DNA from: Minisyncoccota bacterium
GTDB lineage: Bacteria; Patescibacteriota; Minisyncoccia; Phycocordibacterales; CAIRYW01
Length of the DNA: 59,966 nucleotides
Reading direction: 5' to 3'
NCBI GenBank assembly: GCA_041665985.1
Contig: JBAYHV010000001.1
Coordinates: 1 to 59,966, forward strand
In this document: in pieces, positions 3,615 to 52,202 of the stretch
How the letters are laid out: every line of letters starts with the position of its first letter
Numbering within the stretch: the stretch's first letter is position 1
Made by a program: the position numbers and the translations under genes
The notes under the pieces: model-generated
What the model was told of the DNA's origin: nothing
The model's database searches: none
Seen by the model: the letters and a program-made list of their open reading frames with translations, nothing else

Positions 3615-3723
3615 AAATTATTTGAATTAAATTGTAAAATCTTACAAATACAATTATACAACCTAAATACAATAATAGTTGCAAACAAAAATTCTGTTGC
3701 TATAATATTTCTACAATTAAATA

Positions 3724-3820: not shown

Positions 3821-3837
3821 AATATTTTATATTTGAA

Positions 3838-27728: not shown

Positions 27729-28055
27729 CTACGAAAAAAATCTTCCTAAAATTGCTTTCCATCCTGAACTACGTCTTCTTCCACAGCACCACATAAACCC
27801 CCAATCTATTGTAGGTTTTCCACATTGAACACATTCAACAATTTTTTCTTCATCATCACTTGTTTCAAATTTAATTTGACAATCCTCGCATCTACGAAAA
27901 TAGATCTTTCCTAATCTTGGAGGTGATTTTATATAAACGCCTATATAAATCATTTTTCCTTTGCACTCTGGACAAAATTCTTTTTTTTCGTCAAACTCAC
28001 AACTTGTCTCACATGTAGGACAAATATACTCATATTTCCTTTCAGCTTGTTTCAT
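27729..28055 (-). CDS. Hypothetical multi-zinc-ribbon protein
   Basis: Four CxxC pairs (CPTC, CPEC, CEDC, CVQC) in 108 aa. Confidence 0.55.
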   Translation of the reverse strand: MKQAERKYEYICPTCETSCEFDEKKEFCPECKGKMIYIGVYIKSPPRLGKIYFRRCEDCQIKFETSDDEEKIVECVQCGKPTIDWGFMWCCGRRRSSGWKAILGRFFS

Positions 28056-28102
28056 TTGGTTATTATATCAAAGTCTAAACTTCTTGAATTTATAAAAACT
28101 GA

Positions 28103-28108
28103 TATAAT
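28103..28108 (+). promoter_or_regulatory. TATAAT hexamer 7 nt upstream of ATG 28116 (leaderless candidate)
   Basis: gaTATAATtaacccaATG. Confidence 0.3.
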
Positions 28109-28115
28109 TAACCCA

Positions 28116-29072: not shown

Positions 29073-29082
29073 TATAATATTT

Positions 29083-29844
29083 ATGGCAAATAACAATTCC
29101 TGGAAGAAAATTTTTGAAGACAATAAGATTTTGAAACATGATTTTTCTAAATCACCTTTTTATTTGTCTGCCGAAATGATTAAAAAATCAGTACAGGAAT
29201 TTACTAAGACTAGTGAAAAAGAAGTTCGTTGTCTGTGTAAAATGGATACAAGAGAAAGTCTTCCTGAAATAATGAGAAATAATAACTTAATTTTATTACC
29301 TGTAAAAAATAAATATTATGTAATTGTAAAAGGTGAAGGTTTTGTTGATATTCCTGAGATAGTAAGTCCAACTGAAATATACAATACTAAATTAGGTTTT
29401 GATTTAGAAACCTCTAAAATAGGTAATTCAGAGATGCAACATCTAGATTTCGCCTATGCATCAAGTTTAATAAGGACATTTATGGACGATCCTTCTTTAG
29501 TTCTTACAATAAGAGGGCGAAAATATACCCCTGAGTTCGATTTTAAAATTAATCAACAAAATATAAAAGTCAAAGGTGTTCAAACAGAGGTGGATGCTGG
29601 GTATGAAGGAAAAGATAAAGTTGTATTAATTGAAGCAAAAAATTCTAAAACAAAAAATACAATAATTCGGCAATTATATTATCCATTTAGACAATGGAGC
29701 GAACATACTAATAAGAATGTATATTTACTTTTTTTTGAAAAAAGAAAGAATGAATATCTTATTTGGCAGTATACATTTGAAAATAAAAATGATTATAATT
29801 CCATTAAATTGATTAAATCAAAAAAATATAAAATCAATAAATAA
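29083..29844 (+). CDS. Putative type II restriction endonuclease (PD-(D/E)XK-like)
   Basis: Sandwiched between two methyltransferases. VDAGYEG..VVLIEAKNS fits D...ExK. No family recognised by eye. Confidence 0.5.
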   Translation: MANNNSWKKIFEDNKILKHDFSKSPFYLSAEMIKKSVQEFTKTSEKEVRCLCKMDTRESLPEIMRNNNLILLPVKNKYYVIVKGEGFVDIPEIVSPTEIYNTKLGFDLETSKIGNSEMQHLDFAYASSLIRTFMDDPSLVLTIRGRKYTPEFDFKINQQNIKVKGVQTEVDAGYEGKDKVVLIEAKNSKTKNTIIRQLYYPFRQWSEHTNKNVYLLFFEKRKNEYLIWQYTFENKNDYNSIKLIKSKKYKINK

Positions 29845-29850
29845 AGTTTT

Positions 29851-30609
29851 ATGAAAAGTGAAATCGGAATAAAAAAATTACATCCTGACGAATTTGAACT
29901 AGAATGTACAACTGTCTGGGCTTTTCCTCGTCGTGGTAATTGGGCAACTCACGCATCAGACTGGAGAGGAAACTGGGCACCAGAAGTTGTTAGAAATTTA
30001 ATCCTAAGATATTCAAAAGAAAAAGATCATTTACTTGATTGTATGATTGGAGGAGGAACAACAGCAATTGAAGCAAAGATATTAAATAGGCATATTACCT
30101 GTATTGATGTAAATGAAAAAGCCCTAGAACGAACAAAGAAAGCTCTTGAATTTACGATTGATAATAAAGCAAAACAAAGAGTTGTTAAATGTGATGCTAG
30201 AAATATGAGTTTTATAAAAGATGGGGAAATAGATTTTGTTTTAACTCATCCTCCTTATGCGGATATTATAAAATATAGTGAAGGGAAAATTGAAGAAGAT
30301 TTGTCTGGTATACATGATATAAATGCTTTTATTGATGAAATAGAAAAAGTCGCAAAAGAATTGTTTAGAGTTTTAAAGAAAGGAAAATACTGTGCAATTC
30401 TGATGGGAGATACACGCAGAAATAAAATGTACCAACCTCTTGCTTTTAAGGTTATGGAAAAATTTTTGAAAGTCGGATTTGTTTTAAAAGAGGACATAAT
30501 AAAAAGACAATTTAATTGCAAGGCAACTGGTTTTTGGGTCACAAAATCAAAAGAATCAAATTTCTTGTTAATAATGCATGAGCACCTCTTTATCTTCCAA
30601 AAGATTTAA
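29851..30609 (+). CDS. SAM-dependent DNA methyltransferase, second MTase of the cluster
   Basis: LDCMIGGGTT (motif I) and LTHPPYADII ((D/N/S/H)PPY motif IV). Confidence 0.7.
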   Translation: MKSEIGIKKLHPDEFELECTTVWAFPRRGNWATHASDWRGNWAPEVVRNLILRYSKEKDHLLDCMIGGGTTAIEAKILNRHITCIDVNEKALERTKKALEFTIDNKAKQRVVKCDARNMSFIKDGEIDFVLTHPPYADIIKYSEGKIEEDLSGIHDINAFIDEIEKVAKELFRVLKKGKYCAILMGDTRRNKMYQPLAFKVMEKFLKVGFVLKEDIIKRQFNCKATGFWVTKSKESNFLLIMHEHLFIFQKI

Positions 30610-30639
30610 TTTAATAATTGATATATAATTATTAATGTA

Positions 30640-31536
30640 ATGACCCACTACGGAAAAAGATTTTTTAGTTTTTTAAACACCAACAAAGCAGGAATATTTT
30701 TCTGCGTTGTTTTTGTAATCGTTCTCGTCGGAATAAATATTGCAGGAAATGCACTTTATAATAATTTTTTTATACCAAATTACTTTGATCATCCTGTATC
30801 TGACAATTCATTTTCTGGTTCCGATTTATCTTCATCAGATTGCAATGTTACAGGAATAAATATTCACGGGGATATTGTGACCTACAACCCACGCGATGCT
30901 TTTAACGATCAAGGCAACCTAACACTTGATCAAACCTCCGCAGACTACGTCACAGAGGCTGTAGCAGATGCTCAAACCAAAGATAATATCAAAGCAATAG
31001 TTGTTGAAGTAGATTCAGGCGGAGGCTCTGGTATGGCAGGAGAAGAAATGATGCGAGCTTTCAAGGATTCTAAAAAACCCGTTATCGCTTTTATTAGAGA
31101 AGGTGGAATGTCCGCTGCATATTTGGCAGCTACTGGGGCTCAAACAATTTTTGCCTCAAAACTTTCAGATGTAGGAAGTATTGGAGTAACAATGTCTTAT
31201 CTCCAAGAAGCTGGAAAAAATCAAAAAGAAGGTCTTTCATATGTAGATCTAAGTTCAGGTAAATTTAAAGATTCTGGAAATCCAGCTCGGCTTTTAACTA
31301 AAGATGAAAAACAACTTTTCATGCGCGATATAAATATCAGCTACGAGTATTTTGTGAGTTTAGTGTCACAAAATCGTAACCTAAGTATTGAAAAAGTGAA
31401 GGCTCTAGCTGATGGTTCTAGCGTGATGGGTGAGCAAGCTTTAAAAGACGGTTTGGTGGATAAGATCGGCTTACTTCCTGATGTTGAGAACTACATCTCT
31501 GAAAAGATCGGCGAAAAAACAAAAATTTGCTGGTAG
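30640..31536 (+). CDS. sppA: Signal peptide peptidase SppA (S49 family, 36K type)
   Basis: N-terminal TM helix, then IKAIVVEVDSGGGS and GGMSAAYLAATGA. Confidence 0.85.
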   Translation: MTHYGKRFFSFLNTNKAGIFFCVVFVIVLVGINIAGNALYNNFFIPNYFDHPVSDNSFSGSDLSSSDCNVTGINIHGDIVTYNPRDAFNDQGNLTLDQTSADYVTEAVADAQTKDNIKAIVVEVDSGGGSGMAGEEMMRAFKDSKKPVIAFIREGGMSAAYLAATGAQTIFASKLSDVGSIGVTMSYLQEAGKNQKEGLSYVDLSSGKFKDSGNPARLLTKDEKQLFMRDINISYEYFVSLVSQNRNLSIEKVKALADGSSVMGEQALKDGLVDKIGLLPDVENYISEKIGEKTKICW

Positions 31537-31692
31537 GGAAGCAAAACTTGATTGAAAAAACGTAAATATGGTCGATTTTAACCATGTATTTACGTTTTTC
31601 ATTATAAATAAAATAAAATAGAATCCTTCTTGCCTTTTTATTAAATATTTATATACTGTGACAATTAAATTATAAGTAACAAATAAAAAAAT

Positions 31693-31824
31693 ATGTCAGA
31701 AGAAGTATATGATATTGCAAAGGAGAATGATTTAACTTTCGATGAGGCAATGGAAATTCAAGAATTGGTAGACGAAAAAGGAATGGAAGTAAGTGAAGCT
31801 TTTGAAATGTGGGAAGAAAGATAA
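31693..31824 (+). CDS. Candidate 43-aa acidic small protein (MSEEVYDIAKENDLTFDEAMEIQELVDEKGMEVSEAFEMWEER)
   Basis: ATG-to-TAA ORF found by eye, followed by a strong terminator. Below the 60-aa ORF-track cutoff. Confidence 0.35.
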   Translation: MSEEVYDIAKENDLTFDEAMEIQELVDEKGMEVSEAFEMWEER

Positions 31825-31849
31825 CATTTAAATAGTTCTTAAAATAAAA

Positions 31850-31881
31850 AACCTCGTCCGCCTAAACGGACGAGGTTTTTT
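31850..31881 (+). terminator. Rho-independent terminator
   Basis: aacctcgtccg/cggacgaggtt 11-bp stem plus a T-run. Confidence 0.75.
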
Positions 31882-32133
31882 ATTTGTCTAAATATACAAA
31901 ATCTTTGGTATAATTCACTTGTCTAAATCTTACAAACTAATCTCAAAAACAATGTCAAAAAAATCACAAAAAGCGAGCGATCTAAAAAGCGGAGGAAAAA
32001 ATCTTAAAGCAAAAAACGCTTCATTAAAATCAAAACCATTTTCTGTTGCTGATGTTTCAACATCAAGAAGAGGAAGATAAGGGTAAGTTGAAAGTTATAA
32101 AGTCCATGAGGTTTATAAAGTAATAATGAACAT

Positions 32134-33117
32134 ATGAAGAATAAATCGGAACAAAAAAATAACTTAGTAATATATCAAGCAAAAAACGGAGCTATTGAGC
32201 TACGTGGGGATTTTGAGCATGAGAATATTTGGGCAACACAGGCTCAAATTGCCCAATTATTTGACGTTACCCCTCAAAATATTACCTTGCATTTGAATAA
32301 TATATATAAGGATAAAGAACTCAATATGAAGGCAACTTGTAAGGAATCCTTACAAGTTCAAATCGAAGGAAAAAGAAGAATAGAAAGATCTGTTAAATTT
32401 TACAACGTAGATACAATTATTGCAGTCGGTTATAGAATTAATTCAGTAATGGGAACTAATTTCCGTATCTGGGCAACAAAAACTCTCAAAGAACATATTA
32501 CAAAAGGCTACACCGTAAATCGCAAACAAATTGCCAAAAATTACGAGGCCTTTATGAAGTCTGTTTCAGATATTCAAGCACTTTTACCTGAACATATTAC
32601 ACTTGATCCAAAAGCAGTTTTGGAACTGATCAAGGAATTTTCTAGTACCTGGATATCTCTTGATGCATACGATAAAGAATCTCTTACCGTTATTGGGACA
32701 ACAAAAAAATCAATCAGATTAACTGGACAGGAATTGGCAAATGCTATCCACAATCTCCGAGCAGAATTAATTAAAAATGATAAGGCAACAGATATTTTTG
32801 CCCAAGAAAGAAGAACTGGAAACATTGAAGGAATTGTTGGAAACGTGATGCAATCTTTTGGAGGAAAAGATGTTTATAGAACGATAGAAGAAAAAGCTGC
32901 GCACTTACTTTACTTCATGGTAAAAAATCACCCATTTGTAGACGGAAACAAACGCTCCGGTGCTTTTTCTTTTGTATGGTTTTTGAGAAAGGCCAAGGCT
33001 AAGAAAACTAGAAACATAAATCCTAGCGCTCTTACTGCACTTACACTTTTGATCGCAGAAAGTAATCCCGAGAAAAAAGACCAAATGATTGCATTGGTAA
33101 CACAGATGTTAAAATAA
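32134..33117 (+). CDS. RhuM-family N-terminal domain fused to a Fic/Doc (Doc-type) domain
   Basis: N-terminus: ...FDV..QNI..HL.NIY...EL...VKFYN.D.IIAVGYR.NS..G..FR.WAT. C-terminus: HPFVDGNKR (Doc motif). Confidence 0.8.
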   Translation: MKNKSEQKNNLVIYQAKNGAIELRGDFEHENIWATQAQIAQLFDVTPQNITLHLNNIYKDKELNMKATCKESLQVQIEGKRRIERSVKFYNVDTIIAVGYRINSVMGTNFRIWATKTLKEHITKGYTVNRKQIAKNYEAFMKSVSDIQALLPEHITLDPKAVLELIKEFSSTWISLDAYDKESLTVIGTTKKSIRLTGQELANAIHNLRAELIKNDKATDIFAQERRTGNIEGIVGNVMQSFGGKDVYRTIEEKAAHLLYFMVKNHPFVDGNKRSGAFSFVWFLRKAKAKKTRNINPSALTALTLLIAESNPEKKDQMIALVTQMLK

Positions 33118-33126
33118 ATAAAAAAA

Positions 33127-33972
33127 ATGGCATTCGATAAATATTCAGCAGTGTGGGTATCGCATTCTTCAATGGGAGATTTTTTGAAATGTCCGCGCGC
33201 TTATTATTTACATAATGTATATAAGGATCCAAAAACAAAAAGAAAAATAAGTATTATTAATCCTTCTCTTTCTCTTGGTTTGGCAGTACATACAACACTC
33301 GAAGCTCTAAAGAATATTCCTGTGGAAGAAAGGATGAAAAGAGACCTTTTAGCAGATTATGAAGAAGCTTGGAAAGCTGTTTCAGGAAAAATAGGAGGCT
33401 TCAAAAACGCCGAAGAAGAAGCCGAGTTTAAAGAACGAGGCAAAGCAATGATAGAGAGAGTTATAAAAAACCCAGGACCAATTACCGAAAAGACAGTTAG
33501 AATAAAAGAATCTAATAATGGTATGCCACCAAATTTTATTCTTTCTGACGAAGAAAATATTATTTTATGCGGTCTGATCGACTGGCTTGAATATATTGAG
33601 AAGGACGACAGTGTTCGTATTTTGGATTTTAAGACTGGTAAACACGACGAAACAGAAGATTCATTGCAACTTCCAATTTATCTTTTACTTTTGAATGCTC
33701 TACAAAAAAGAAAAGTAACAGGCGCTTCCTATTGGTATCTTGATAGAGATGATAAGCCTATTGATATGCCTTTGCCAACCATCAAGCAATCAGAAGAAAA
33801 AGTTCTTGCGGTTGCGAAACAAGTAAAAAATGCCCGTGAGAAAAAAATATTTCTTTGTCCAAAAGGCGAAGGAGGATGTTTTGCTTGTAAACCATTTGAA
33901 GCAATTTTAGAAGGGAAGGCAGAATATTTAGGTGTTGGAGGTTATGGTTGCGATATTTATTCCGCCAAGTGA
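33127..33972 (+). CDS. PD-(D/E)XK nuclease, RecB/Cas4-like with a putative Fe-S Cys cluster
   Basis: N-terminal KCPRAYY. GLIDW...ILDFKTGK (D..DxK) and QLPIYLLL (QxxxY). C-terminal CPKGEGGCFAC. Confidence 0.7.
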   Translation: MAFDKYSAVWVSHSSMGDFLKCPRAYYLHNVYKDPKTKRKISIINPSLSLGLAVHTTLEALKNIPVEERMKRDLLADYEEAWKAVSGKIGGFKNAEEEAEFKERGKAMIERVIKNPGPITEKTVRIKESNNGMPPNFILSDEENIILCGLIDWLEYIEKDDSVRILDFKTGKHDETEDSLQLPIYLLLLNALQKRKVTGASYWYLDRDDKPIDMPLPTIKQSEEKVLAVAKQVKNAREKKIFLCPKGEGGCFACKPFEAILEGKAEYLGVGGYGCDIYSAK

Positions 33973-42493: not shown

Positions 42494-42721
42494 ATGTTTG
42501 ACGATAAAAAAGCATACAAAGAGCAAAAAAATATTTTGGAAAGAATTCAAAAGGATTCCTATTTGATCCGCGAACAAATTTTAGACTATTATTTTGATAG
42601 ATATCCAGACGATGAGGCAGAAGCTCTTGAATATTTACGTGGAATAAGAAATTATCTTGATGAAGCATACAAAGACATAGATTTTATTTTGAAGGATCTT
42701 GATAATAAGCTCGGATATTAA
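42494..42721 (+). CDS. Hypothetical 75-aa protein
   Basis: ORF only; no motif recognised. Confidence 0.45.
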   Translation: MFDDKKAYKEQKNILERIQKDSYLIREQILDYYFDRYPDDEAEALEYLRGIRNYLDEAYKDIDFILKDLDNKLGY

Positions 42722-42945
42722 ATTTCACCTAAAAAAACTCAATTTTACGAAAATCCCTCTGAGCTCCAGGGGAATTTTCGTAAAAAGATAGGGCTAAAAC
42801 CTTTGAGGTATAAGGGATTTCAAAAGGGTACATTCACAGCCTCCACTTTTCATTTCGGAGTGTCTTTTGCACAGTTTTTTTCTTAAAATTCTTGCTAAAA
42901 TTATTGATACAAAATAAAAAGTTATCAGCCAGTTAATTAATAAAT

Positions 42946-45282
42946 ATGAGTTCCTCAAAAAGTAAAAAAACTGTCGCAAAAAAGGAAGAAGTTTTTGTTT
43001 CAAAAGTTCAAAAGAGAGATGGATCGATTGTACCTTTTAATACAGAGAAAGTAGTTTCTGCTGTATACAAATCTATGATCGCATCTGGGGAAGGCTCTCT
43101 TAAAGAAGCAGAAATGGTGGCAAATAAGGTTTTTGCTGATGTTGTAAAGATCGCAAAAAAATACAAAAACTTTGTTCCAACAGTTGAAGGAATTCAAGAT
43201 AGTGTTGAGAAGGAACTCATTTTAGGTGAATACGTAAAAACAGCGAAGGCTTACATTCTTTATCGCGATAAACGATCAAAACTCCGTGAAAAAGGACTAC
43301 AGGTTCCTGAACATTTAAAAAAATTAGTGGGTGCTAGTAAAAAATATTTCCGAACAGAGCTTGGAGAATTTATGTACTACCGAACTTATTCAAAATGGAT
43401 CGACGCAGAACAAAGAAGGGAGACTTGGATTGAAACTGTAAATCGCTACATGGCTTTCATGAAGGAAAATCTTGGCGATAAATTAAAAGAAAGCGAGTAC
43501 AAGGAAGTTGAAGAAACAATTTTGAAACAAGACGCTCTTCCTTCAATGAGACTTTTGCAATTTGCAGGAACAGCAGCAGCAAAAACAAATGTTTGCGCAT
43601 ACAATTGTTCATTCGTTGCACCAGAATGTTTTCAAGATCTTGCAGAAATAATGTACATCCTAATGTGCGGAACTGGCGCAGGATTTTCTGTTGAGAGTCA
43701 AAATGTTCAAAAGTTTCCACAAATTTTAATTCAATCAGGAGCAAAAAAATCTACATATGAAATTCCTGATAGTAAAGAAGGATGGGCTGATGCTTTAACT
43801 CACGGCATGAATGTTTGGGCAAGCGGAAAGGATGTTGAATTTGATTTTTCCAAATTGCGTCCAGCGGGAGCAAGACTAAAAACTATGGGAGGAAAATCAT
43901 CTGGCCCTGATCCGATCAGAAAACTTCTTACATTTACAAGAGAAAAAATGTTAACTCGCCAAGGAAAGAGGCTTCGCAACATCGATGTTCACGATATTAT
44001 TTGTATGATCGGTGAATGCGTTGTTTCAGGAGGCGTACGACGAAGTGCTCTTATTTCACTTTCTGATCTTGATGACAATGACATCAGAGATGCTAAAAAA
44101 GGCGCATTTTATAATACAGAACCTCAAAGAATGCTTTCAAACAACTCTGCAGTCTATATTCAAAAGCCAACAGCGGCTGAATTTATGGATGAATGGATCG
44201 CTTTGATGAAATCCGGAACAGGAGAAAGAGGCATTTTCAACAGAGGATCACTCGCAAAAACATTGCCAGAAAGAAGAATTAAGGTTTTGAAAGAAACCGA
44301 AGGATATTTTGATGCAACAGGAACAACTATTATCGGTTCTATTGGAACAAACCCTTGCGGAGAAATTATTCTTCAATCAAAACAATTTTGTAACTTAACA
44401 AACGTTGTTGCACGAGCAGAAGACACAAAAGAATCATTGCTTCGTAAAATTAGAGTTGCAACAATTATTGGAACATATCAATCAACTCTTACAAATTTTC
44501 CCTATTTATCAAAAAGATGGAAAGAAAATTGTGAAAAAGAAAGACTATTAGGAATTGGACTAGCAGGACAATGGGATAACGACATGGTAAGAAAACCACA
44601 GATCCTTGAAACTCTAAAACTAGAAACAATAAAAATAAATAAAATTTATGCAAAAAGATTCGGAGTAAACGAATCAACAGCGATAACTTGCGTAAAACCA
44701 GATGGAAACTCTTCACAAACTTTTGATTTCTCATCAGGAATGCACCCTCGTTATTCAAAATATTATATTCGAAGAATTAGAATTGCAGCAACAGATTCAC
44801 TTTTCAAAATGTTGAAGGATCAAGGAATTCCATATTTCCCAGAAGTTGGACAAAATGCTGAGAGCGCAACAACTTATGTTTTGGAATTTCCAGTTAAGGC
44901 TCCAGCGGGTTCGATCTTCAAAGATGATCTAACAGCTCTTGATCAACTTGAACACTGGAAAGTTGTGAAAGTAAATTACACAGAGCACAATCCTTCAGTA
45001 ACAATTTCAATTGGCGAGAATGAATGGATAGAAGTAGCAAACTGGATCTACACAAACTGGGATATCGTTGGAGGTCTTTCATTCCTTCCTCGAGAAAATC
45101 ACGTTTATCAACTTGCTCCATACGAAAAAATTGATGAAAAAAGATATTTAGAACTTTCTAAAAAACTAAAGAATCTAGATTACTCAAAGATTATGATCTA
45201 CGAAAAGAAGGACGAAACTGAAGTAAAAAGGGAATTAGCGTGTGTTTCTGGAGTTTGTGAGATAGATGAGATTCCAAAATAG
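42946..45282 (+). CDS. nrdJ: Class II (adenosylcobalamin-dependent) ribonucleotide reductase with an N-terminal ATP-cone
   Basis: ATP-cone VQKRDGSIVPFN.EK. Also NPCGEI, and a C-terminal Cys pair (CVSGVCE). Confidence 0.88.
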   Translation: MSSSKSKKTVAKKEEVFVSKVQKRDGSIVPFNTEKVVSAVYKSMIASGEGSLKEAEMVANKVFADVVKIAKKYKNFVPTVEGIQDSVEKELILGEYVKTAKAYILYRDKRSKLREKGLQVPEHLKKLVGASKKYFRTELGEFMYYRTYSKWIDAEQRRETWIETVNRYMAFMKENLGDKLKESEYKEVEETILKQDALPSMRLLQFAGTAAAKTNVCAYNCSFVAPECFQDLAEIMYILMCGTGAGFSVESQNVQKFPQILIQSGAKKSTYEIPDSKEGWADALTHGMNVWASGKDVEFDFSKLRPAGARLKTMGGKSSGPDPIRKLLTFTREKMLTRQGKRLRNIDVHDIICMIGECVVSGGVRRSALISLSDLDDNDIRDAKKGAFYNTEPQRMLSNNSAVYIQKPTAAEFMDEWIALMKSGTGERGIFNRGSLAKTLPERRIKVLKETEGYFDATGTTIIGSIGTNPCGEIILQSKQFCNLTNVVARAEDTKESLLRKIRVATIIGTYQSTLTNFPYLSKRWKENCEKERLLGIGLAGQWDNDMVRKPQILETLKLETIKINKIYAKRFGVNESTAITCVKPDGNSSQTFDFSSGMHPRYSKYYIRRIRIAATDSLFKMLKDQGIPYFPEVGQNAESATTYVLEFPVKAPAGSIFKDDLTALDQLEHWKVVKVNYTEHNPSVTISIGENEWIEVANWIYTNWDIVGGLSFLPRENHVYQLAPYEKIDEKRYLELSKKLKNLDYSKIMIYEKKDETEVKRELACVSGVCEIDEIPK

Positions 45283-45363
45283 TAGGTCGTGTTAAGAGGT
45301 CTTGTTTATGATATTATTATAGATATAGATTTTGAGACGAATGTAAAGTATTGAAAAAAATAG

Positions 45364-45460
45364 ATTCGTTATATTGGGGAAGTCTGGTGTAAATCCAGCA
45401 CAGTACCGCTACGGTAACCTTGAATTTTTTAAGGAAGTCCGAGTACCAATATAATGAGAA
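45364..45460 (+). promoter_or_regulatory. Cobalamin (B12) riboswitch
   Basis: GGGGAAgtcTGGTGtAAATCCAgCACAGtACCGCtACGGTAAcc...GGAAGTCCGAgtACC (B12-box-like). P1 is ttatattgg/ccaatataa. Confidence 0.8.
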
Positions 45461-45530
45461 AATTGTCTTGTCGATCCTCGAGTAAGGGATGGCGGAAACC
45501 TAAAAGTATTTAAAACTTTTGATATCCTAA

Positions 45531-45555
45531 CCCCTCTCACCCGAGAGGGGTTTTT
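45531..45555 (+). terminator. Riboswitch expression-platform terminator, ending 6 nt before ATG 45562
   Basis: cccctctc/gagagggg stem plus T5. Confidence 0.7.
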
Positions 45556-45561
45556 GGTATT

Positions 45562-47388
45562 ATGGAAACAAAATTTTCAACAACAGAATATGAATTTGAT
45601 TTGGAAAAATCAATAGAAGGCGAAATTAGGCCTGATAATTTTGAAATACCTAAACCTATAGAGCAAACAAATGAATTCACTCAAAGTACTGAAAGTAGTA
45701 CAAAATCTGGTTTACAGCTGGTTGTGGAAAAATATGCCATAAAAGAAGAAGATTGGAATATGACATGGAGCGGTGGAGGAGAAAGATTTGAAAAAGGAGA
45801 AATTTTTGATGAAAATGGTTCTATTACAGAAAAAATTTCGCAAGAAAACTCAGCTGATAACGCAATGTTAATAGCGCATTTTGAAATGGTGGATCATTTT
45901 AAAAGTAATTCCACTGAAGGATATGTATTGCCAGACTGGACTGTGAAATCAGAAACAGGAGAAATTCTTGAAGTAAATGTTACTGTCGCTTTTCTTGTGG
46001 ATGGTAGAATTTATTACGAAACATGGACGCATACGGCCGAACAAAAAGAATCAGAAGAGGATGAATTAATAAAAGAAGAGACAGATTCAGATGAGGTTTT
46101 AGCAGATCAAGAAATAGATTTAAATAATACAGAAGATCCTATTGTTGAGGATGAAATTGAATCAATCGAACCAGTGCTAGTTATTGCTACAGATAAAGAA
46201 ATTCAAGCTCAATCAGTAGCACAGGAAAAAACTGAAACTCTAGTCACAGAACAAATTCTTAGAAACACTGAGTCTCAAATTATAAATTCTGTTTCTGTTG
46301 AAAATACCCATATCAATGTGCAAGAAATAAACAATGTAGCACGGATTGAGATAATCATAGATGAGAATGAAAAAACAAATGATCCTATAGATAAAAATGA
46401 GACCATCGAACTAGTATCGGACATAAATTCACAGCCAGAGGTAGAAACAGAACTTGTTGTTACGGAACCAAAAATAGTTCCAGAGGATAAGCAAACCGAA
46501 GCAGCACCAATTAATAAAAAAGAAATTGTTGAAAGTGTTCACACTGAAACAGTGGTAAAAGAAACTGTTAAGGAAGTACAGACAAAAAAAGTAGAATCAA
46601 AAATTGCTGAAGAAAAAATATTGGACAAAGAGTTTGATGTAAAAGTAGTAGATGAAACAAAAGAAGTACACTTTGAAAGAAAAGAAACAGATAAAGAAAT
46701 TAAAGAAGTTTCCTCCGAAATTATTTCAGAGATCTTTTCATCAGAAAAAAGACCAACTGATGCAAGTTCTCAAAAAGAAGAAAAAGAGGCAGTTCAAATA
46801 AGAGAAGCTTCAAATAAAGAAATCAAAAAAGAAGAGAGACCTCAAACTGACAAAGCGATCGAATCGCCTTATGTTGAAGATATTAAAATAGTCCTAGAAG
46901 TAACTTCTTCTAAAATTGAGAGTGCAAATATAAAAACAGAAATTAATGAAAATCCTGCAATAAATGTCGATAAGAGTATAAAAAATGAAGTGGAAGCAAA
47001 AAAAGATATTTCAAATACTGAAAAGAAGGCATCCGAAACTAATTCATCTGAAATTGTAGAAACTTCGCCTAGAACAGTTGAAAATATCGATGAAAAAACT
47101 GTTTCTTCGATAGTTTTAGCTGAATCCAGAACACAAACAAATGAAGCCATAAGAATAAGAACAAATAGGGAGGAAGTTCAAAAAACTTCAAACCAAAACG
47201 AGTCATTCCTAAGAGCTCTTGGATTGCATAGATCGCAAAACCAAACAGAAAGGAGAGCAAGACCTTTTTATCAAACAAACACATCAAATCAACCTGCAAA
47301 TAAACAATCAAAAACTATTGTCGAAGAAAAAATAATTCCTTCAACCACAAATGCATTAAACGGTATTACTTTGAAAAGAGCTGCATAG
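45562..47388 (+). CDS. Uncharacterised 608-aa highly acidic protein (globular ~170-aa N-terminal domain, then a long E/K/T/V/I-rich low-complexity region)
   Basis: A 1.8-kb uninterrupted ORF in AT-rich DNA. No signal peptide or TM helix and no recognisable family. Lies directly downstream of the cobalamin riboswitch. Confidence 0.7.
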   Translation: METKFSTTEYEFDLEKSIEGEIRPDNFEIPKPIEQTNEFTQSTESSTKSGLQLVVEKYAIKEEDWNMTWSGGGERFEKGEIFDENGSITEKISQENSADNAMLIAHFEMVDHFKSNSTEGYVLPDWTVKSETGEILEVNVTVAFLVDGRIYYETWTHTAEQKESEEDELIKEETDSDEVLADQEIDLNNTEDPIVEDEIESIEPVLVIATDKEIQAQSVAQEKTETLVTEQILRNTESQIINSVSVENTHINVQEINNVARIEIIIDENEKTNDPIDKNETIELVSDINSQPEVETELVVTEPKIVPEDKQTEAAPINKKEIVESVHTETVVKETVKEVQTKKVESKIAEEKILDKEFDVKVVDETKEVHFERKETDKEIKEVSSEIISEIFSSEKRPTDASSQKEEKEAVQIREASNKEIKKEERPQTDKAIESPYVEDIKIVLEVTSSKIESANIKTEINENPAINVDKSIKNEVEAKKDISNTEKKASETNSSEIVETSPRTVENIDEKTVSSIVLAESRTQTNEAIRIRTNREEVQKTSNQNESFLRALGLHRSQNQTERRARPFYQTNTSNQPANKQSKTIVEEKIIPSTTNALNGITLKRAA

Positions 47389-47401
47389 ATGCTAATTATT
47401 T

Positions 47402-49063
47402 ATGAATAACTTCAACAAAATTGAATATTACGATCTAAAAGATGAATCCTTGCAAGGAAGATTACCTGATGTTGTTGGCCGAAGTGAAGAAATTGAACGT
47501 ATTAATCGTGTAATAAATAGACGAATAAATAATAATATTCTTTTAATGGGGCCAAGCGGAATAGGTAAAACAACTCTTGTATATGGCTGGATCAAAAAAA
47601 TTAGCAAAGAAAAAAAATACGATCATCTTAAATTCATTCAATTTGACTCAGGTCATTTATTAAATTTAATAAATTCTGGCGAACAGGACAGCGAACTTTC
47701 TTATGTGCTAAATCAATTACCAGCATGCATCTTGTTTATTGATAATTTTGGAAGAATTGCAAATAATAATATTAGTTTAGTAAATTATATGGCAAAAATA
47801 TATAATTTATTACTCAAAAAGCCTGAAATAAGAATAGTCCTTACTCTTGAACCTCATGAATATTCTTGGATAGAAAGGGAGTATCCATCATTTATAAAAT
47901 TATTTGAATCTATTGCAGTAAAAGAACAGAGCATGAATGATTATGTTCATATTCTTGAAAAAAAACTGCCGTATCTTAATCAAACCAGTCACATTATTGT
48001 ACCAACGGAAACTATTAAGGAAATTATCTCTCTTGCAAAACGTTTTCCAAATCTAGGACAACTGCCTCAATCTGGTATAAGTATATTGGATGAATCAATT
48101 GCTTTTGCAGTTTCAAATGAACAAAAAGTTTTATCTGAAAATATTGTTGCTGGTATTATTTCAAGCAAGGTAGGCATACCAAAAACACAACTAAATCATG
48201 ATGAAATAGGAATATTGAATGATCTTGAAAATACTCTTAATCAGCACATCATCAGTCAAAAAAATGCAATTGCAAAGATCACAAAAACTTTACAAAGAGC
48301 AAAGCTTGGTATCAAAAATCAAAATAGGCCTTTGGGATCTTTCTTGATACTTGGACCGTCTGGAGTTGGAAAAACAGAAACAGCAAAAATAATTGCCCAG
48401 ACTTTTTTTGGCCGTTCTGAAAGTTTTATTAGGTTTGATATGTCTGAATTTGGACAAGATCACACCGTCCAGCGCCTAATAGGAGCTCCTGCAGGCTATA
48501 TTGGATACGAAGGAGGAGGAGCGCTTACAAACGCCCTTAAAAAGGAGCCGCACAGCCTTATATTGCTAGATGAAATAGAAAAGGCGCATCCAAAGGTATT
48601 TGATATTTTTCTTCAAGTTCTTGATGATGGACGCTTAACCTCTGGTCAAAATGAGACCGTTGATGCCCGCAATTCAATAATAATGGCAACATCTAATATT
48701 GGGGTGCAAGACATTGTCAAAGAATTTGAATTGGGAGCGGATCTTTCAGATGAATCATTTATTCAGGAAAAAATAATTCCCGCTTTAGAAAAAGTATTTA
48801 GATTGGAATTCATAAATAGATTTGATAGTATAATTATTTTTAACCCTCTAACTCTTGACGGTCTTGTTGAAATTGCTCTACTTGAAATTAAAAAAGTGGA
48901 AAAACGCTTAGCTAAACATAAAGTTCAATTTGATATAGACCCGAGCGTACTTCAAAATAAGATCAAGGATCTAGTTGATCTGCGTTTTGGAGCGCGTCCA
49001 GTAAAAAGATTTATTGAGGAAACCTGTGAATCATTATTAGCGCAATCTCTTTTGAACAAATAA
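47402..49063 (+). CDS. Clp/Hsp100-family AAA+ ATPase, reduced (no N-domain or M-domain; degenerate first Walker B)
   Basis: NBD1: VVGRSEEIERI..., GPSGIGKTT, but FIDNF where DE would be expected. NBD2 is intact: GPSGVGKTE, LLDEIEKAH, ATSN, GARP..R. Confidence 0.8.
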   Translation: MNNFNKIEYYDLKDESLQGRLPDVVGRSEEIERINRVINRRINNNILLMGPSGIGKTTLVYGWIKKISKEKKYDHLKFIQFDSGHLLNLINSGEQDSELSYVLNQLPACILFIDNFGRIANNNISLVNYMAKIYNLLLKKPEIRIVLTLEPHEYSWIEREYPSFIKLFESIAVKEQSMNDYVHILEKKLPYLNQTSHIIVPTETIKEIISLAKRFPNLGQLPQSGISILDESIAFAVSNEQKVLSENIVAGIISSKVGIPKTQLNHDEIGILNDLENTLNQHIISQKNAIAKITKTLQRAKLGIKNQNRPLGSFLILGPSGVGKTETAKIIAQTFFGRSESFIRFDMSEFGQDHTVQRLIGAPAGYIGYEGGGALTNALKKEPHSLILLDEIEKAHPKVFDIFLQVLDDGRLTSGQNETVDARNSIIMATSNIGVQDIVKEFELGADLSDESFIQEKIIPALEKVFRLEFINRFDSIIIFNPLTLDGLVEIALLEIKKVEKRLAKHKVQFDIDPSVLQNKIKDLVDLRFGARPVKRFIEETCESLLAQSLLNK

Positions 49064-49262
49064 AAATATGAATCTCGTTAGAGAAGTTTTGTTTGGAATT
49101 AGAGAAATATATTAGAAAAAATAAACAATGACAATTTCTTACATAAAATCGAATATACTACGGAAACGCCAGATATTACCAATATTTTCATATATTATAA
49201 TGAGTCGTAATTTAACAGATTTAAATTTTGGAACCGCTTAGGCGCTTCCTTTCTCTAACAGG

Positions 49263-49580
49263 ATGAATAAAAAAGAGATCCTACAAAAAAATGAACTACT
49301 GCGGACAAATAATACTGAATCAACAGTAAGCATTTCTGCTTTATCATTAGATCAAGTCGAAAGTGTATACGCTGAAAGAAAAAATATGCTTTCTGGTATT
49401 GAAATGTATATCAATCCGCATTTTCAATCAATATTAAGAATAAAAATAAATAATGAAAGAAAACAACTGCTCGACATACTCGCAGCAAATACAAAGAAAA
49501 CACATGTAGTCGAAAAACCAGCACAAATTTTAGATGATAGATACTTTATACAAAAACATTTAGATCAAAACATTTTTTAA
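49263..49580 (+). CDS. Hypothetical 105-aa protein
   Basis: ORF immediately upstream (4-nt gap) of the TraG/VirD4-like ATPase. Confidence 0.45.
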   Translation: MNKKEILQKNELLRTNNTESTVSISALSLDQVESVYAERKNMLSGIEMYINPHFQSILRIKINNERKQLLDILAANTKKTHVVEKPAQILDDRYFIQKHLDQNIF

Positions 49581-49584
49581 ATTT

Positions 49585-50865
49585 ATGACATCAGTAAACA
49601 TAGGAATAAATGAATACCGTGGCAACAAAAGATCGATCGGATATCAGGACCAAGACAGATTGCGTCATATGTACATGATCGGAAAAACTGGAGTTGGTAA
49701 ATCTACTATTTTTCAAAATATGTGCCTGCAAGATATCAAAAATTCACAAGGAGTGTGCTTTATTGATCCCCATGGAGAATCAATTGATTGGCTACTTCAG
49801 CATATACCTAAAGAAAGATTAGAAGACGTTGTTTTGTTTGATCCAAGTGATACCGAATTTCCTTTTGGATTAAATTTACTTGAAGCAAAAGATGAGCAAG
49901 AAAAAGATTTTTTGGTCAGTGAATGTATCCAAATTTTCTATAAATTATTTGATCCAGAAAAAAGCGGTATCATTGGCCCTCAATTTGAGCATTGGCTTAG
50001 AAACGCTGCTTTGACGGTAATGGCAGGTCCAAGTGGAGGAAGTATCATTGAAATACCGAAATTATTTGTTGATCAGGAATTTTTAATGAACAAACGGAAG
50101 TATTTGACCGACCCGCTTGTTATTGATTTTTGGACAAAACAAATGGCTAAGACATCGGATTTTCATAAAAGTGAAATGCTAAATTACTTTATGTCTAAAT
50201 TTGGATATTTCATGAACAATAAGTTAATGCGGAATATTATTGGACAGCATTCGAGCAGTTTCAAATTTGACAGTTTAATGGATAGCAATAAAATACTTTT
50301 AGTTAATCTTTCAAAAGGAAAAATCGGAGAAGTAAGCGCTCACATGCTTGGATTAATTTTGGTATCAAAATTACAAGCAGCAATTTTAAAGAGGGCAAAC
50401 AGGCCACAAGATGAACGTCTGCCTTTTTATCTTTATGTTGATGAATTTCAAAACTTTACGACTGATTCATTCATTAGTTTACTCAGTGAATCGCGAAAAT
50501 ATGGCCTAGGAGTGCACATTACCAATCAATATCTTGCACAATTGCCTAGCACTATAAAAGACGCTGTATTAGGCAACGTAGGAACTATCCTTTCATTTGA
50601 AGTGGGGGTTGAAGACGCTCAAATATTAGCAAAAGAATTTGAGCCAATAACAATTAATGATTTTTTGGGTCTGCAAAGATTTAATTTTTACATAAAGCTT
50701 ATGATCAACGGAAAGACAAGTAATGTATTTTCTGGAATTAGCATTCCTCCAGAACAAATCCAAAAAAATACAGCTCCAAAAGAAGCAATAATTTCGTTGA
50801 ATCGATTATCCTATGGATCGCCTCAATTGCTTGTTGACGAAAAAATCAAAAATTATCTAGAATAA
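49585..50865 (+). CDS. TraG/TraD/VirD4-like (coupling-protein-type) P-loop NTPase, soluble
   Basis: GKTGVGKST Walker A, FIDPHGE, YLYVDEFQNF Walker B, SESRKYGL..H..NQ. Confidence 0.65.
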   Translation: MTSVNIGINEYRGNKRSIGYQDQDRLRHMYMIGKTGVGKSTIFQNMCLQDIKNSQGVCFIDPHGESIDWLLQHIPKERLEDVVLFDPSDTEFPFGLNLLEAKDEQEKDFLVSECIQIFYKLFDPEKSGIIGPQFEHWLRNAALTVMAGPSGGSIIEIPKLFVDQEFLMNKRKYLTDPLVIDFWTKQMAKTSDFHKSEMLNYFMSKFGYFMNNKLMRNIIGQHSSSFKFDSLMDSNKILLVNLSKGKIGEVSAHMLGLILVSKLQAAILKRANRPQDERLPFYLYVDEFQNFTTDSFISLLSESRKYGLGVHITNQYLAQLPSTIKDAVLGNVGTILSFEVGVEDAQILAKEFEPITINDFLGLQRFNFYIKLMINGKTSNVFSGISIPPEQIQKNTAPKEAIISLNRLSYGSPQLLVDEKIKNYLE

Positions 50866-50878
50866 TTGATAAAGCTCT

Positions 50879-50903
50879 GGATCCCCATTTCCACGGGGAT
50901 GAC
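50879..50903 (-). repeat. Diverged REP-like palindrome (ggatccccatttccacggggatgac)
   Basis: Stem atcccc/ggggat; compensatory variant of the attccc/gggaat family. Confidence 0.55.
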
Positions 50904-50916
50904 AGCAAGGAAACAA

Positions 50917-51501
50917 ATGAAAAACTACATAGAAATAATAAAAAAAGGAGGAATCGGAGTAATGCCAACTGACACAATTTTAGGCATTATTGGCAGTGCC
51001 TTTTCAAAAAAAGCTGTAAAAAGGATCTATGAGGTCAGAGGGCGCGATAAAAACAAGCCCTTAATAATTCTTATTGAAAATATATCTGAACTAAAAAAAT
51101 TCGGTATAAAAAATATTCCAGAAAAAGAATTAAAGAAAATATGGCCAAATAAGGTCTCAATAATTTTTGAAGCAAAAAGTACAAAATTTAAATATTTGCA
51201 TAGAGACACAAATACCCTGTGCTTTAGAATGCCAAAAAATAAATTTATTCAAAGTATTCTCAAAAAAACAGGTCCATTGGTAGCACCCAGTGCCAATCCA
51301 CAAGGAAAACCTTTTGCAAAAAATATAACTGAGGCCAAAAAATACTTTGGAGATAAAGTTGATTTTTTTATTAAAAATAATTCAAAAAATACAACTTCCT
51401 CTACAATTCTAAAATATTTATCAAAGGAAAAAGTATTTGAATTGGTAAGGGAAGGAGATGTAACAGAGAATGGACTTAGGTCAAAAATCCTGATAAAATA
51501 A
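50917..51501 (+). CDS. tsaC: L-threonylcarbamoyladenylate synthase (YrdC/TsaC)
   Basis: GGIGVMPTDTILG, Y..RGRDKNKPL and APSANP motifs. ATG 50917 is preferred over TTG 50866, which would read through the palindrome. Confidence 0.85.
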   Translation: MKNYIEIIKKGGIGVMPTDTILGIIGSAFSKKAVKRIYEVRGRDKNKPLIILIENISELKKFGIKNIPEKELKKIWPNKVSIIFEAKSTKFKYLHRDTNTLCFRMPKNKFIQSILKKTGPLVAPSANPQGKPFAKNITEAKKYFGDKVDFFIKNNSKNTTSSTILKYLSKEKVFELVREGDVTENGLRSKILIK

Positions 51502-51509
51502 GCCTTAAT

Positions 51510-52202
51510 ATGAAAAAAAAAGACCGAGCTCCAATAGTTATTTCCCTTGGAGGTTCTCTTATTGTTCCGGAAGCAATTGACACTGATTTTATAAAAAAGT
51601 TTAAAGCAATTATAGATAAAGAGGTTGGTCTCGGAAAAAGATTTATTATTATTTGCGGAGGAGGAAGAATCGCTCGAAACTACCAAATTGCAGGACAAAA
51701 AATAACCAAACTTAGATCAGCTGATATCGATTGGCTGGGAATCCACTCAACACGTCTTAATTCTCAACTGATTAAGACTATTTTTTTGCCTAAAGTTGAG
51801 GAAATTGTAGTTCATGATCCTCATGAAAAAATTACATTTAAAAAATCAATTTTGGTAGCCGCTGGATGGAAACCAGGGTGGTCAACTGACTATGATGCAA
51901 TTTTACTTGCAAAAAGATTTAAGGCGACAAAAGTAATTAATCTTTCAAACATTGATTATGTTTGTGATAAAGATCCCAAAAAACATTCAGATGCAAAAGT
52001 ACTATTAAATATTACATGGAAAGATTATAGAAAATTAATTCCTACTAAATGGTCTCCTGGATTAAGTTCTCCTTTTGATCCAATTGCTTCAAAGGAAGCC
52101 GAAAAATCAAATATTAAAGTGGCTGTAATTAGTGGAGAAAACCTAGACCAACTAGATAACTTCATATACGACAAACCCTTCGAGGGAACTTTGATATACT
52201 AA
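51510..52202 (+). CDS. pyrH: UMP kinase, archaeal-type (amino-acid kinase fold)
   Basis: ISLGGSLIVPE...D..FIK.F, ICGGGRIAR, G...STD, NIDYV...DP layout resembling archaeal PyrH. Confidence 0.7.
   Translation: MKKKDRAPIVISLGGSLIVPEAIDTDFIKKFKAIIDKEVGLGKRFIIICGGGRIARNYQIAGQKITKLRSADIDWLGIHSTRLNSQLIKTIFLPKVEEIVVHDPHEKITFKKSILVAAGWKPGWSTDYDAILLAKRFKATKVINLSNIDYVCDKDPKKHSDAKVLLNITWKDYRKLIPTKWSPGLSSPFDPIASKEAEKSNIKVAVISGENLDQLDNFIYDKPFEGTLIY

Follow-up and report, generated by a model that had tools for sequence, protein, structure and literature searches.

Which genes are controlled by a cobalamin riboswitch that stands in front of a protein without recognisable family? Cobalamin riboswitch regulons usually comprise corrinoid transport, corrinoid biosynthesis or salvage, and B12-independent isozymes (btuB, cob/cbi, metE, nrdDG). 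The question is raised by a locus on a 59,966-nucleotide stretch of DNA from a Minisyncoccota bacterium of the Patescibacteriota (GenBank assembly GCA_041665985.1, contig JBAYHV010000001.1, positions 1 to 59,966 of the forward strand; the window, meaning hereafter this whole stretch), for which an original prediction, made from the sequence alone, had proposed a cobalamin riboswitch just downstream of the ribonucleotide reductase gene nrdJ and ahead of an open reading frame (ORF) starting at position 45562. As reported here, a genuine riboswitch of the cobalamin class, with a terminator as its platform, leads a four-gene operon, and the pairing of riboswitch and operon is conserved across at least 45 species-level lineages, independent of the flanking genes. 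The four genes, referred to as genes 1 to 4 and jointly as the cassette, encode an acidic protein, a Clp-like ATPase, a small protein and a VirD4/TrwB-like P-loop ATPase. Considering these findings, positions 45352-50865 are rather probably one copy of a conserved Patescibacteria operon in which a cobalamin OFF switch governs a corrinoid-related module made up of a client protein, its unfoldase and a coupling ATPase.

A cobalamin riboswitch with a terminator platform

The aptamer locates to positions 45352-45501 of the + strand, where an Rfam cmscan at gathering threshold returned the adenosylcobalamin (AdoCbl) riboswitch aptamer RF01482 with 60.8 bits (E 9.7e-9; curated cut-off 50 bits), the match covering the entire 149-position model. 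A second family of the cobalamin clan CL00101 exceeded its own cut-off at the same site and was suppressed as overlapping, and the covariance model R1, which was built in the present analysis and is described below, scores the same positions with 158 bits. The riboswitch core that had been proposed downstream of nrdJ is thus confirmed, and the motifs which had been named in its support (GGGAA, GGTGTAAATCC, CACAGTACCGCTACGGTAA and AAGTCCGAGTACC) are all found in the leader. RF00174, the model suggested for the covariance-model check, belongs to the same clan, but the top model is RF01482. The element is a new member of a known riboswitch class.

Downstream of the aptamer an intrinsic terminator forms the expression platform of the riboswitch (45529-45555, + strand). 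Its stem, identified by a terminator scan, spans positions 45529-45552 and consists of 10 pairs, six of them G-C, closed by the loop ACCC; the T-run TTTTT follows at 45551-45555, and after a further GGTATT the start codon ATG is reached at 45562, the distance of 6 nt between terminator and ATG being exactly that of the original prediction. This gap leaves no room for a promoter, and ORF 45562 is predicted to be under the control of the riboswitch. The terminator hairpin is present in the minimum-energy fold of the leader and stays intact when the aptamer structure is enforced, and its 3' arm, GAGAGGGG, doubles as the sole Shine-Dalgarno-like sequence ahead of the ATG. When the transcription intermediate 45460-45541 was folded, GAGUAAGGG (45479-45487), a part of the aptamer 3' hairpin, was found to pair with the terminator 5' arm, replacing that hairpin; the thermodynamically predicted antiterminator thus extends over positions 45479-45538 (+ strand) and involves GAGUAAGGG and AUCCU..CCCCUCUC (45524-45538). 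In many orthologous leaders the sequence of the aptamer 3' hairpin (e.g., CCCGAGCAGGA) is duplicated as the terminator 3' arm, so that the terminator 5' arm can pair with either copy.

Taken together, the leader architecture and its predicted folds point to the standard design of a ligand-induced termination switch, and since a terminator combined with a competing antiterminator is the platform of known cobalamin riboswitches, repression by corrinoid is implied. In such a mechanism the bound corrinoid would hold the aptamer 3' hairpin, the terminator at 45529-45555 would form and transcription would halt 6 nt short of the start codon. Under corrinoid scarcity the terminator 5' arm would instead be paired with the 3' part of the aptamer and RNA polymerase would read through into the four genes. 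As to the origin of the leader transcript, two overlapping, weak sigma-70-like promoter candidates (TTAAGA-17-TATTAT and TTGAGA-18-AAAAAT; 45292-45361, + strand) were revealed by a consensus scan with 9 of 12 positions matching in each, and are to be read as consensus matches, which are no proof of function. As the terminator scan detected no terminator between the nrdJ stop (45282) and the aptamer, transcription of the leader may start at these candidates or may read through from nrdJ.

Conservation of the riboswitch and the cassette

Gene 4 served as a handle for scanning one genome per GTDB species, which recovered 44 loci, one from each genome, and every one of these contains the same four genes in the same order. 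On the contigs that encode homologues, gene 1 is followed by a Clp-like gene of 553-555 codons, an ORF of 84-123 codons and a P-loop ATPase gene of 426-430 codons, and a gene 1 orthologue occupies the same position in every complete locus. Genes 1 and 2 as well as genes 3 and 4 are tightly spaced, and no + strand terminator lies inside the cassette. Therefore the earlier view of ORF 45562 as a lone regulated gene with a Clp-like neighbour has to be modified: the ORF is predicted to be B12-regulated, as proposed, but the regulated unit is the four-gene cassette. Where record titles are informative they name Patescibacteria (Parcubacteria/Paceibacterota, Nomura-, Kaiser- and Doudnabacteria); many automated records of metagenome-assembled genomes are labelled 'Candidatus Saccharibacteria' and five 'uncultured Gammaproteobacteria', the latter probably being mislabels.

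Linkage between homologues and riboswitches, which had been proposed as a check across related genomes, was found in essentially every locus examined, whatever gene lies upstream. Matches at the Rfam gathering threshold were obtained directly upstream of the homologue in the loci L001, a close relative of the window, and L002, a high-GC distant relative with an unrelated upstream gene, and each of the remaining first-round loci gave a sub-threshold cobalamin-clan match at the same place and on the same strand in E-value mode. With the curated Rfam cut-offs, eight of eight further loci passed with RF01482 or RF01689 (L011, L012, L013, L029, L044, L046, L049 and L051), among them distant cassettes whose gene 1 head domain (see below) escaped detection by a hidden Markov model (HMM). 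The covariance model R1 was built from five aptamers with a structure derived from Rfam and searched against 54 sources (825 kb), its E-values being rough owing to a shortened calibration. It yielded 44 hits in 42 loci, all on the + strand and all just upstream of gene 1, with none elsewhere in the 825 kb; with filters off, the last three complete loci, L047 (33 bits), L042 (21 bits) and, marginally, L023 (12 bits), were added, each with its top match at the expected position, while in the loci without a match the contig ends before the leader.

In the alignment of the 44 aptamer sequences (42 distinct), 87.7% of the cells are paired as compared to 35-46% when the partners are slid by 1-3 columns, a contrast which is still large even though fitting the alignment to the model structure inflates the pairing counts somewhat. 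Furthermore, both partners vary in 32 of 39 pairs, and the covariation score amounts to 0.379 as against 0.04-0.08. A chance match is hence disfavoured, as the same aptamer with compensatory changes precedes homologous genes in about 45 other loci. The near-universal layout of the leaders is aptamer, G+C-rich hairpin with U-tract and start codon: in a crude automated scan 43 of 45 orthologous leaders showed a hairpin with U-tract, the latter lying at a median distance of 16 nt from the ATG, the scan having mis-picked a few leaders, including that of the window, which were checked by eye. Two side observations concern the aptamers themselves. For the leaders of L011 (4518-4591) and L029 (4620-4730) the top model is RF01689 (AdoCbl-II or variant class) and not RF01482, and different lineages may thus sense different corrinoid forms ahead of the same operon. 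In L006 (6742-6879) and L007 (230-367) the riboswitch contains a near-perfect palindromic hairpin of about 140 nt which matches plant microRNA-precursor models on both strands and looks like a miniature inverted-repeat transposable element (MITE)-like or hairpin insertion tolerated in a variable aptamer loop.

Beyond the cassette, all-against-all clustering of the genes within 9 kb on either side revealed no gene common to more than nine loci. The recurrent neighbours that were sampled are lineage-specific genes of housekeeping type (MFS transporter, RNase J, cytidylyltransferase, Mur ligases and similar), no conserved neighbours for B12 transport or biosynthesis were found, and the remainder of the 60-kb window is likewise housekeeping. 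The gene upstream of the cassette is nrdJ in the window and in L001, a Schlafen/AlbA-like gene (SLFN_AlbA_2) in L002, a divergently transcribed gene in L003 and a thioredoxin-reductase-like gene in L006.

The nrdJ gene of the window (42946-45282, + strand) encodes an RTPR-like, AdoCbl-dependent class II ribonucleotide reductase with an N-terminal ATP-cone. The Pfam domains ATP-cone, RNR_Alpha, RNR-II_ins_dom and Ribonuc_red_lgC agree with its earlier assignment as a B12-dependent enzyme, and NCBIfam TIGR02505 (RTPR) was matched with 275 bits, under the cut-off of 340. The setting next to nrdJ is real in the window but not conserved, as nrdJ lies within 9 kb of the cassette in just three of about 50 loci, namely the window, L001 and L046, in the last of which it is located 5 kb downstream. 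On contig P0010 the order is nrdJ, a PduO-type cob(I)alamin adenosyltransferase gene, a 308-nt gap and the cassette. The idea that the cassette is tied to nrdJ was consequently rejected, and its link to nrdJ is incidental. Upstream of nrdJ, separated from it by 224 nt (42722-42945), a highly acidic ORF of 75 codons (25% D+E; 42494-42721 in the window, 4895-5122 in L001) is shared by the window and L001 and gave no family match.

At two points the arrangement in the window calls for separate mention. Genes 2 and 3 are separated by an AT-rich, non-coding spacer of about 200 nt (49064-49262) with a promoter-like match at 49122-49149, whereas in L001, the closest relative, they overlap by 4 nt without any spacer; the spacer could be an insertion or an internal promoter region. 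Directly behind it, without a gap or a + strand terminator separating them from the cassette, tsaC/sua5 (L-threonylcarbamoyladenylate synthase) and an archaeal-type UMP kinase gene follow at 50866-52202 and may be co-transcribed with the cassette in the window genome and in L001; beyond these two, the arrangement was seen only in L012 and L015.

The acidic protein encoded by gene 1

Gene 1 (45562-47388, + strand) encodes an acidic protein of 608 amino acids (aa; pI 4.5; 22% D+E) from a previously unnamed family. In line with the original prediction, no match in Pfam, NCBIfam or PADLOC was obtained, and a word-indexed homology search was empty both for the N-terminal 193 aa and for the alignment of the head domain. 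An exhaustive phmmer search of 1.84 billion cluster representatives, however, returned 15 significant matches besides the query, one of them an unrelated repeat protein, and together with the phmmer homologues the conserved motifs indicate that gene 1 belongs to a real protein family. In the family architecture a variable N-terminus precedes the conserved head, which measures about 125 aa and is followed by an acidic body and a C-terminal tail, and neither a signal peptide nor a lipobox nor a membrane segment was identified. Gene 1 evolves fast: orthologues are 22-36% identical where gene 4 reaches 75-86%, the heads being 20-40% identical.

The head (about aa 46-170; 45697-46071, + strand) is characterised by the motifs EDW..TY, FDG.EL.D..G.SLT, H..ML.H, PY.LPDW and YETWSH, and was detected by an iterated HMM in 36 loci. 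It was modelled with AlphaFold2 from a 14-sequence alignment as a compact alpha/beta domain with the element order H-E-E-H-H-E-E-E (predicted local distance difference test, pLDDT, 88.4; predicted template-modelling score, pTM, 0.77). The proposed globular head of about 170 aa is accordingly seen as a predicted folded domain of about 125 aa, for which no significant structural neighbour emerged: Foldseek against the PDB gave a best E of 0.02 with a template-modelling (TM) score of at most 0.32 (haem-PAS, PsbP, EagT6), against BFVD a best E of 0.01 (TM at most 0.42 over PDB and BFVD), and a profile search of gene 1 against PDB sequences nothing under E 0.04. The head as a known fold was therefore rejected, its likeness to PAS domains being one of element order only. 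The most distant cassettes likewise begin with a gene for an acidic protein, whose length is 650-890 aa; the majority of these proteins end in ...AA, and most of their N-termini are recognisably related (W.K.A.S.GGD, G.ETS[IV]T, RH..ILE.LY, YFADEKG.IS[FY]E).

The body is acidic and of low complexity and extends over 300-700 aa, its length not being conserved. The E/K/T/V/I-rich tail of the original prediction holds as regards this body, but it is not featureless, as a basic end and a terminal motif are conserved. The last 60 aa of gene 1 (47206-47385, + strand), recognised as a separate C-terminal tail by comparison of orthologues, are net basic and end in ...ALNGITLKRAA. Of 48 distinct orthologues, 41 have alanine at position -1 and 39 at position -2 (consensus LNGITL[RK][RI]AA; family motif ...LNGITL[KR]xAA), and in 34 of the 48 the final 60 aa carry a net positive charge, as opposed to a net charge of about -12 per 100 aa in the body; a further motif, G.EIL.R.LG, locates about 60 aa before the C-terminus. 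Within the body, a motif [TS]LE[ED][RK][ILV]x[DE]L[FL] was observed in L004, L006, L008, L019, L021, L030 and L050 among others, with EVSSEIISEIFSSE (about aa 382-395) as its candidate counterpart in the window; it may be a binding site for a partner protein.

The partner proteins encoded by genes 2 to 4

Gene 2 (47402-49063, + strand) encodes the reduced Clp-like ATPase that had been noticed downstream of ORF 45562, its identity being borne out by Pfam, by NCBIfam and by alignment with ClpB. The 553-aa protein is a ClpB-type double AAA+ ATPase (AAA_2, 3e-58; ClpB_D2-small) which scores 385 bits with the NCBIfam ClpB model TIGR03346, far under the cut-off of 1232. As its alignment with ClpB is confined to residues 166-399, where it is weak (56 bits), and to the strongly matching residues 532-835 (262 bits), the protein lacks both the N domain and the coiled-coil M domain. 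Comparison of 50 orthologues identified D1 as degenerate, with the Walker B glutamate absent in all 50 (N, D, G or S in its place) and the region of the pore-loop tyrosine not conserved, whereas Walker A, Walker B and the GAPxGY pore loop of D2 are invariant. The D2 loop of residues 431-453 has the length found in ClpB and carries no conserved ClpP-docking tripeptide in these orthologues. Judged by these sequence features, gene 2 is suggested to be a stand-alone unfoldase driven by D2 alone, while the hallmarks of a canonical disaggregase and of a protease partner are missing.

Gene 3 (49263-49580, + strand) encodes a small protein of 105 aa which is located between genes 2 and 4 in every complete locus and is probably helical. 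Pfam, NCBIfam and PADLOC gave no family match above noise, but its C-terminal motif [VI]L[DN]xxYFxQKxL is conserved.

Gene 4 (49585-50865, + strand) encodes a soluble VirD4/TrwB-like P-loop ATPase of 426 aa which is 67-86% identical across the loci. Its AlphaFold2 model (pLDDT 75.5, pTM 0.78, residues 290-330 of low confidence) found TrwBdeltaN70 as the top Foldseek match (E 1e-7, probability 1.00, TM 0.52-0.55 over about 420 columns), followed by Cag-beta, DotL, HerA and VirB4, suggesting a TrwB-type fold that includes the all-alpha domain next to the P-loop NTPase. Walker A occupies residues 33-40, so that the protein begins directly with the NTPase domain, and reading of the sequence, without a dedicated predictor, revealed no hydrophobic N-terminal membrane segment; orthologues are 424-433 aa long. 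Similarities to TrwB, TraD, VirD4 and HerA in Pfam and NCBIfam are weak: TrwB_AAD_bind was matched with 26.0 bits against a cut-off of 20.5, yet no single stretch passes, and the NCBIfam models for TraD and VirD4-like proteins remain far under their cut-offs (e.g., 44.8 against 366). The family comprises at least 7,991 clusters at 90% identity, most of them unnamed or named 'VirD4/TraG/TraD family ATPase', and the source annotations label gene 4 'TraG/TraD family ATPase VirD4'. In a public JGI record the product of gene 4 is given as 396 aa (P0017, 93% coverage), while orthologues and ORF support 426 aa with an upstream ATG.

Proposed function and alternative explanations

Based on these properties a working model for the cassette is suggested, in which gene 1 would be the client or cargo, recognised via its basic C-terminal tail ending in two alanines. 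The D2-only Clp-like ring would unfold or thread it, with gene 3 serving as adaptor, and gene 1 would then be handed to the coupling-protein-like hexamer formed by gene 4. The module would be produced only when B12 is scarce, its most likely task being to acquire or handle corrinoid on behalf of the class II ribonucleotide reductase. We infer the client/unfoldase/coupling-ATPase relationship from the conserved AA tail, the basic tail on an acidic body, the Clp ATPase with intact D2 and dead D1, the TrwB-like gene 4 and the divergence of the head as against the well conserved gene 4, and the corrinoid purpose from expression being tied to low B12 together with NrdJ as the sole B12 enzyme seen nearby. 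The loci with nrdJ close by (the window, L001, L046 and, together with the adenosyltransferase gene, contig P0010) add a further link to B12.

Several findings weigh against this model. The cassette contains no membrane protein, no channel and no known corrinoid-binding or transport domain that Pfam, NCBIfam or Foldseek would recognise, and within 9 kb of the cassette loci no gene of a type IV secretion system (T4SS; virB4, virB6) and no relaxase was found, while the membrane anchor typical of true coupling proteins is missing from gene 4. The gene 1 head is unlike known B12 binders, and its best-conserved histidine is replaced in about eight of 34 wider family members. On the side of regulation, some orthologous leaders remain under the Rfam cut-offs, the pairing counts carry the inflation mentioned above, the OFF logic is derived from architecture and thermodynamic folding, and, because the 200-nt spacer splits genes 2 and 3, an internal promoter is possible in the window.

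The main rival explanation, to which we give a rather low probability, assumes a B12-sparing or dNTP-starvation response: too little AdoCbl for NrdJ would induce a module that compensates the shortage of deoxynucleotides, be it that a translocase of the FtsK/HerA/VirD4 type moves DNA or deoxynucleotides or that the replication machinery is remodelled. An OFF switch is equally compatible with this explanation, whose logic parallels the riboswitch control of the B12-independent isozymes metE and nrdDG in other bacteria, and the missing recognisable corrinoid-binding or transport domain is in its favour, as is the affiliation of gene 4 with the FtsK/HerA/VirD4 superfamily of DNA pumps, given its structural neighbours HerA DNA translocases and TrwB and its weak NCBIfam similarity to TraD and to the DNA-translocating ATPase CedD. 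However, genes for a nuclease, a nucleoside kinase, a DNA-binding protein or a membrane channel are missing from the cassette, a protein as acidic and disordered as that of gene 1 is unlikely to handle DNA, and a C-terminal peptide signal combined with a dedicated protein unfoldase suggests a protein substrate.

If the substrate is a protein, it might also leave the cell. T4SS substrates carry positively charged C-terminal signals which are recognised by VirD4, and the conserved net-positive tail of gene 1 resembles those of many such substrates. In a B12-starvation effector-delivery module the tail would act as translocation signal on a fast-evolving cargo, the D2-only Clp ring would unfold this cargo with the small protein as adaptor, the VirD4-like hexamer would feed a T4SS encoded elsewhere in the genome, and the head would capture or pirate corrinoid at the host cell or inside it. 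We regard such delivery as unlikely. To our knowledge no T4SS possesses a dedicated Clp-type unfoldase and none is controlled by a riboswitch; effector delivery, if true, would thus be unprecedented both as a protein-export module under riboswitch control and as a T4SS-type pathway with an unfoldase of its own, and would give obligate epibionts a new way of acquiring vitamin B12.

Less probable still is the assumption, close to the original prediction, that gene 1 by itself is a cytoplasmic corrinoid capture or storage protein with a cofactor-binding head, genes 2 and 4 encoding co-located housekeeping chaperones. It draws on the confidently modelled alpha/beta head, whose strand-strand-helix-helix-strand-strand-strand order is typical of PAS-like ligand-binding domains, on the weak top Foldseek matches to haem-binding PAS domains and on a histidine of the long head helix that is invariant in the 14 closest homologues. 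Yet the fold matches are non-significant (E at least 0.02, TM at most 0.32), and the histidine is not universal, for which reason it was down-weighted as candidate cobalt ligand; corrinoid binding by the head, as judged from the model, is weakly supported. Moreover, genes 2-4 accompany gene 1 in all loci without exception while the other neighbours vary, and both the acidic disordered body of 300-700 aa and the terminal ...AA would be left unexplained.

That the cassette serves defence or belongs to a mobile element, with HerA/VirD4-like and ClpB-like ATPases at its centre and the link to B12 being secondary, is very improbable. PADLOC related gene 2 to the ClpB-like candidate defence components PDC-M37B (6e-39) and DolB (1e-35) and gene 4 to mad8 (7e-12) and HerA (9e-9), and the fast evolution of gene 1 resembles conflict-driven selection. 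These matches amount to generic AAA+/P-loop similarity, though, for which reason the defence reading was rejected, and the conservation pattern contradicts it: the cassette lies among housekeeping genes in lineage-congruent synteny, its ATPases are 67-86% identical over 44 GTDB species representatives, as is the rule for core functions that are inherited vertically, neither an integrase nor a transposase nor a relaxase is adjacent, and a metabolic role is favoured by the metabolite riboswitch that forms the leader in about 45 of 45 loci. Finally, that the hairpin 45529-45555 is a plain nrdJ terminator, with the riboswitch-like sequence acting on the nrdJ 3' end and ORF 45562 being independent, is hardly credible, for although no other terminator lies in 45282-45529, so that nrdJ transcripts probably end at or read through the hairpin, the same aptamer and terminator precede cassettes with unrelated upstream genes (SLFN_AlbA_2, ParB-like, thioredoxin-reductase-like, MFS transporter or a divergently transcribed gene), and the 6 nt from U-tract to ATG offer no room for a promoter.

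Comparison with known systems

As compared to the cobalamin riboswitches of clan CL00101 (RF00174, RF01482, RF01689), the element shares the B12-box core, the covariation-supported helices and the terminator with competing antiterminator, and differs in its cargo, here an orphan acidic protein, an AAA+ unfoldase, a small protein and a coupling-protein-like ATPase. In the searchable literature no report was found of cobalamin riboswitches in Patescibacteria, the candidate phyla radiation (CPR) or Parcubacteria or of their linkage to type IV secretion, nor a description of the switch together with the cassette. With established corrinoid binders and uptake systems (BtuF, BtuB, BtuG/BtuH, BtuM, ECF-CbrT, PF02310) the cassette has only the regulatory logic, i.e., repression by a cobalamin riboswitch, in common, whereas gene 1 matches them neither in sequence (Pfam, NCBIfam) nor in fold (Foldseek against the PDB).

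The two AAA+ modules of gene 2 correspond to those of ClpB/Hsp104, its D2 being about 50% identical to that of ClpB and including ClpB_D2-small, but the N and M domains and hence the DnaK-coupling element are missing, and D1 is devoid of the catalytic glutamate and the pore-loop tyrosine. From ClpA, ClpC and ClpX it is distinguished by the missing ClpP-docking [ILV]G[FL] loop. A parallel for an arrangement of client, adaptor and unfoldase is given by the ssrA tag, the SspB adaptor and the ClpX unfoldase. By analogy, gene 1 with its ...AA end (..LAA in ssrA) may be likened to the client, gene 3 with its docking-like C-terminal motif to the adaptor and gene 2 to the unfoldase. A further parallel is provided by the substrates of type VII secretion systems, which are handled by the ATPases EccA and EccC.

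Gene 4 shares with the type IV coupling proteins TrwB, VirD4, Cag-beta and DotL the predicted TrwBdeltaN70 fold as well as Walker A and B, but lacks their N-terminal anchor, has no virB4, virB6 or relaxase gene nearby and stays under the NCBIfam cut-offs. A survey of Patescibacteria reported 5,713 VirD4-like homologues in 2,918 genomes, of which only 148 are near virB4; exaptation was considered possible by its authors, and the homologue of Southlakia epibionticum was found not to be essential (PMC12102498, Microb Genom 2025). The terms riboswitch, Clp, AAA and acidic do not occur in that report, and the four-gene cassette is not mentioned (PMC12102498). Being annotated as VirD4/TraG/TraD-like, far from virB4 and abundant in Patescibacteria, gene 4 very probably belongs to this orphan VirD4-like population. 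As a whole, the four-gene module matches no described system, failing the defining features of a T4SS coupling-protein locus, of ClpB, of ClpA/C/X and of corrinoid binders.

Further features of the window

A second metabolite riboswitch of the window is an S-adenosylmethionine (SAM, S-box) element, RF00162, at 3722-3821 (+ strand; 55.2 bits, cut-off 44.4), located about 170 nt upstream of metK (methionine adenosyltransferase, 3991-4980). Positions 28047-33972 form a low-GC stretch (0.29-0.31 over 28-31 kb) with genes for a D12-class N6-adenine DNA methyltransferase, a DUF6996/DUF6997 protein, an N6_N4 methylase, an S49 peptidase, a RhuM/Fic protein and a PD-(D/E)XK nuclease, which looks like a restriction-modification or defence island.

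Significance

Patescibacteria make up much of bacterial diversity, yet most of them have not been cultured. They rely on hosts for metabolites, and for the majority of their conserved genes no function is known. With the riboswitch described here, corrinoid scarcity becomes attached as a physiological signal to one of the most conserved unexplained gene sets of these bacteria, and the cobalamin riboswitch regulon gains a class of cargo outside transport, biosynthesis and isozyme replacement. As the ligand class of the regulating riboswitch is known, the suggested function is directly testable. Should the module indeed serve B12 acquisition, it would explain how the AdoCbl-dependent ribonucleotide reductase is supplied and would reveal a new mechanism of corrinoid uptake or piracy.

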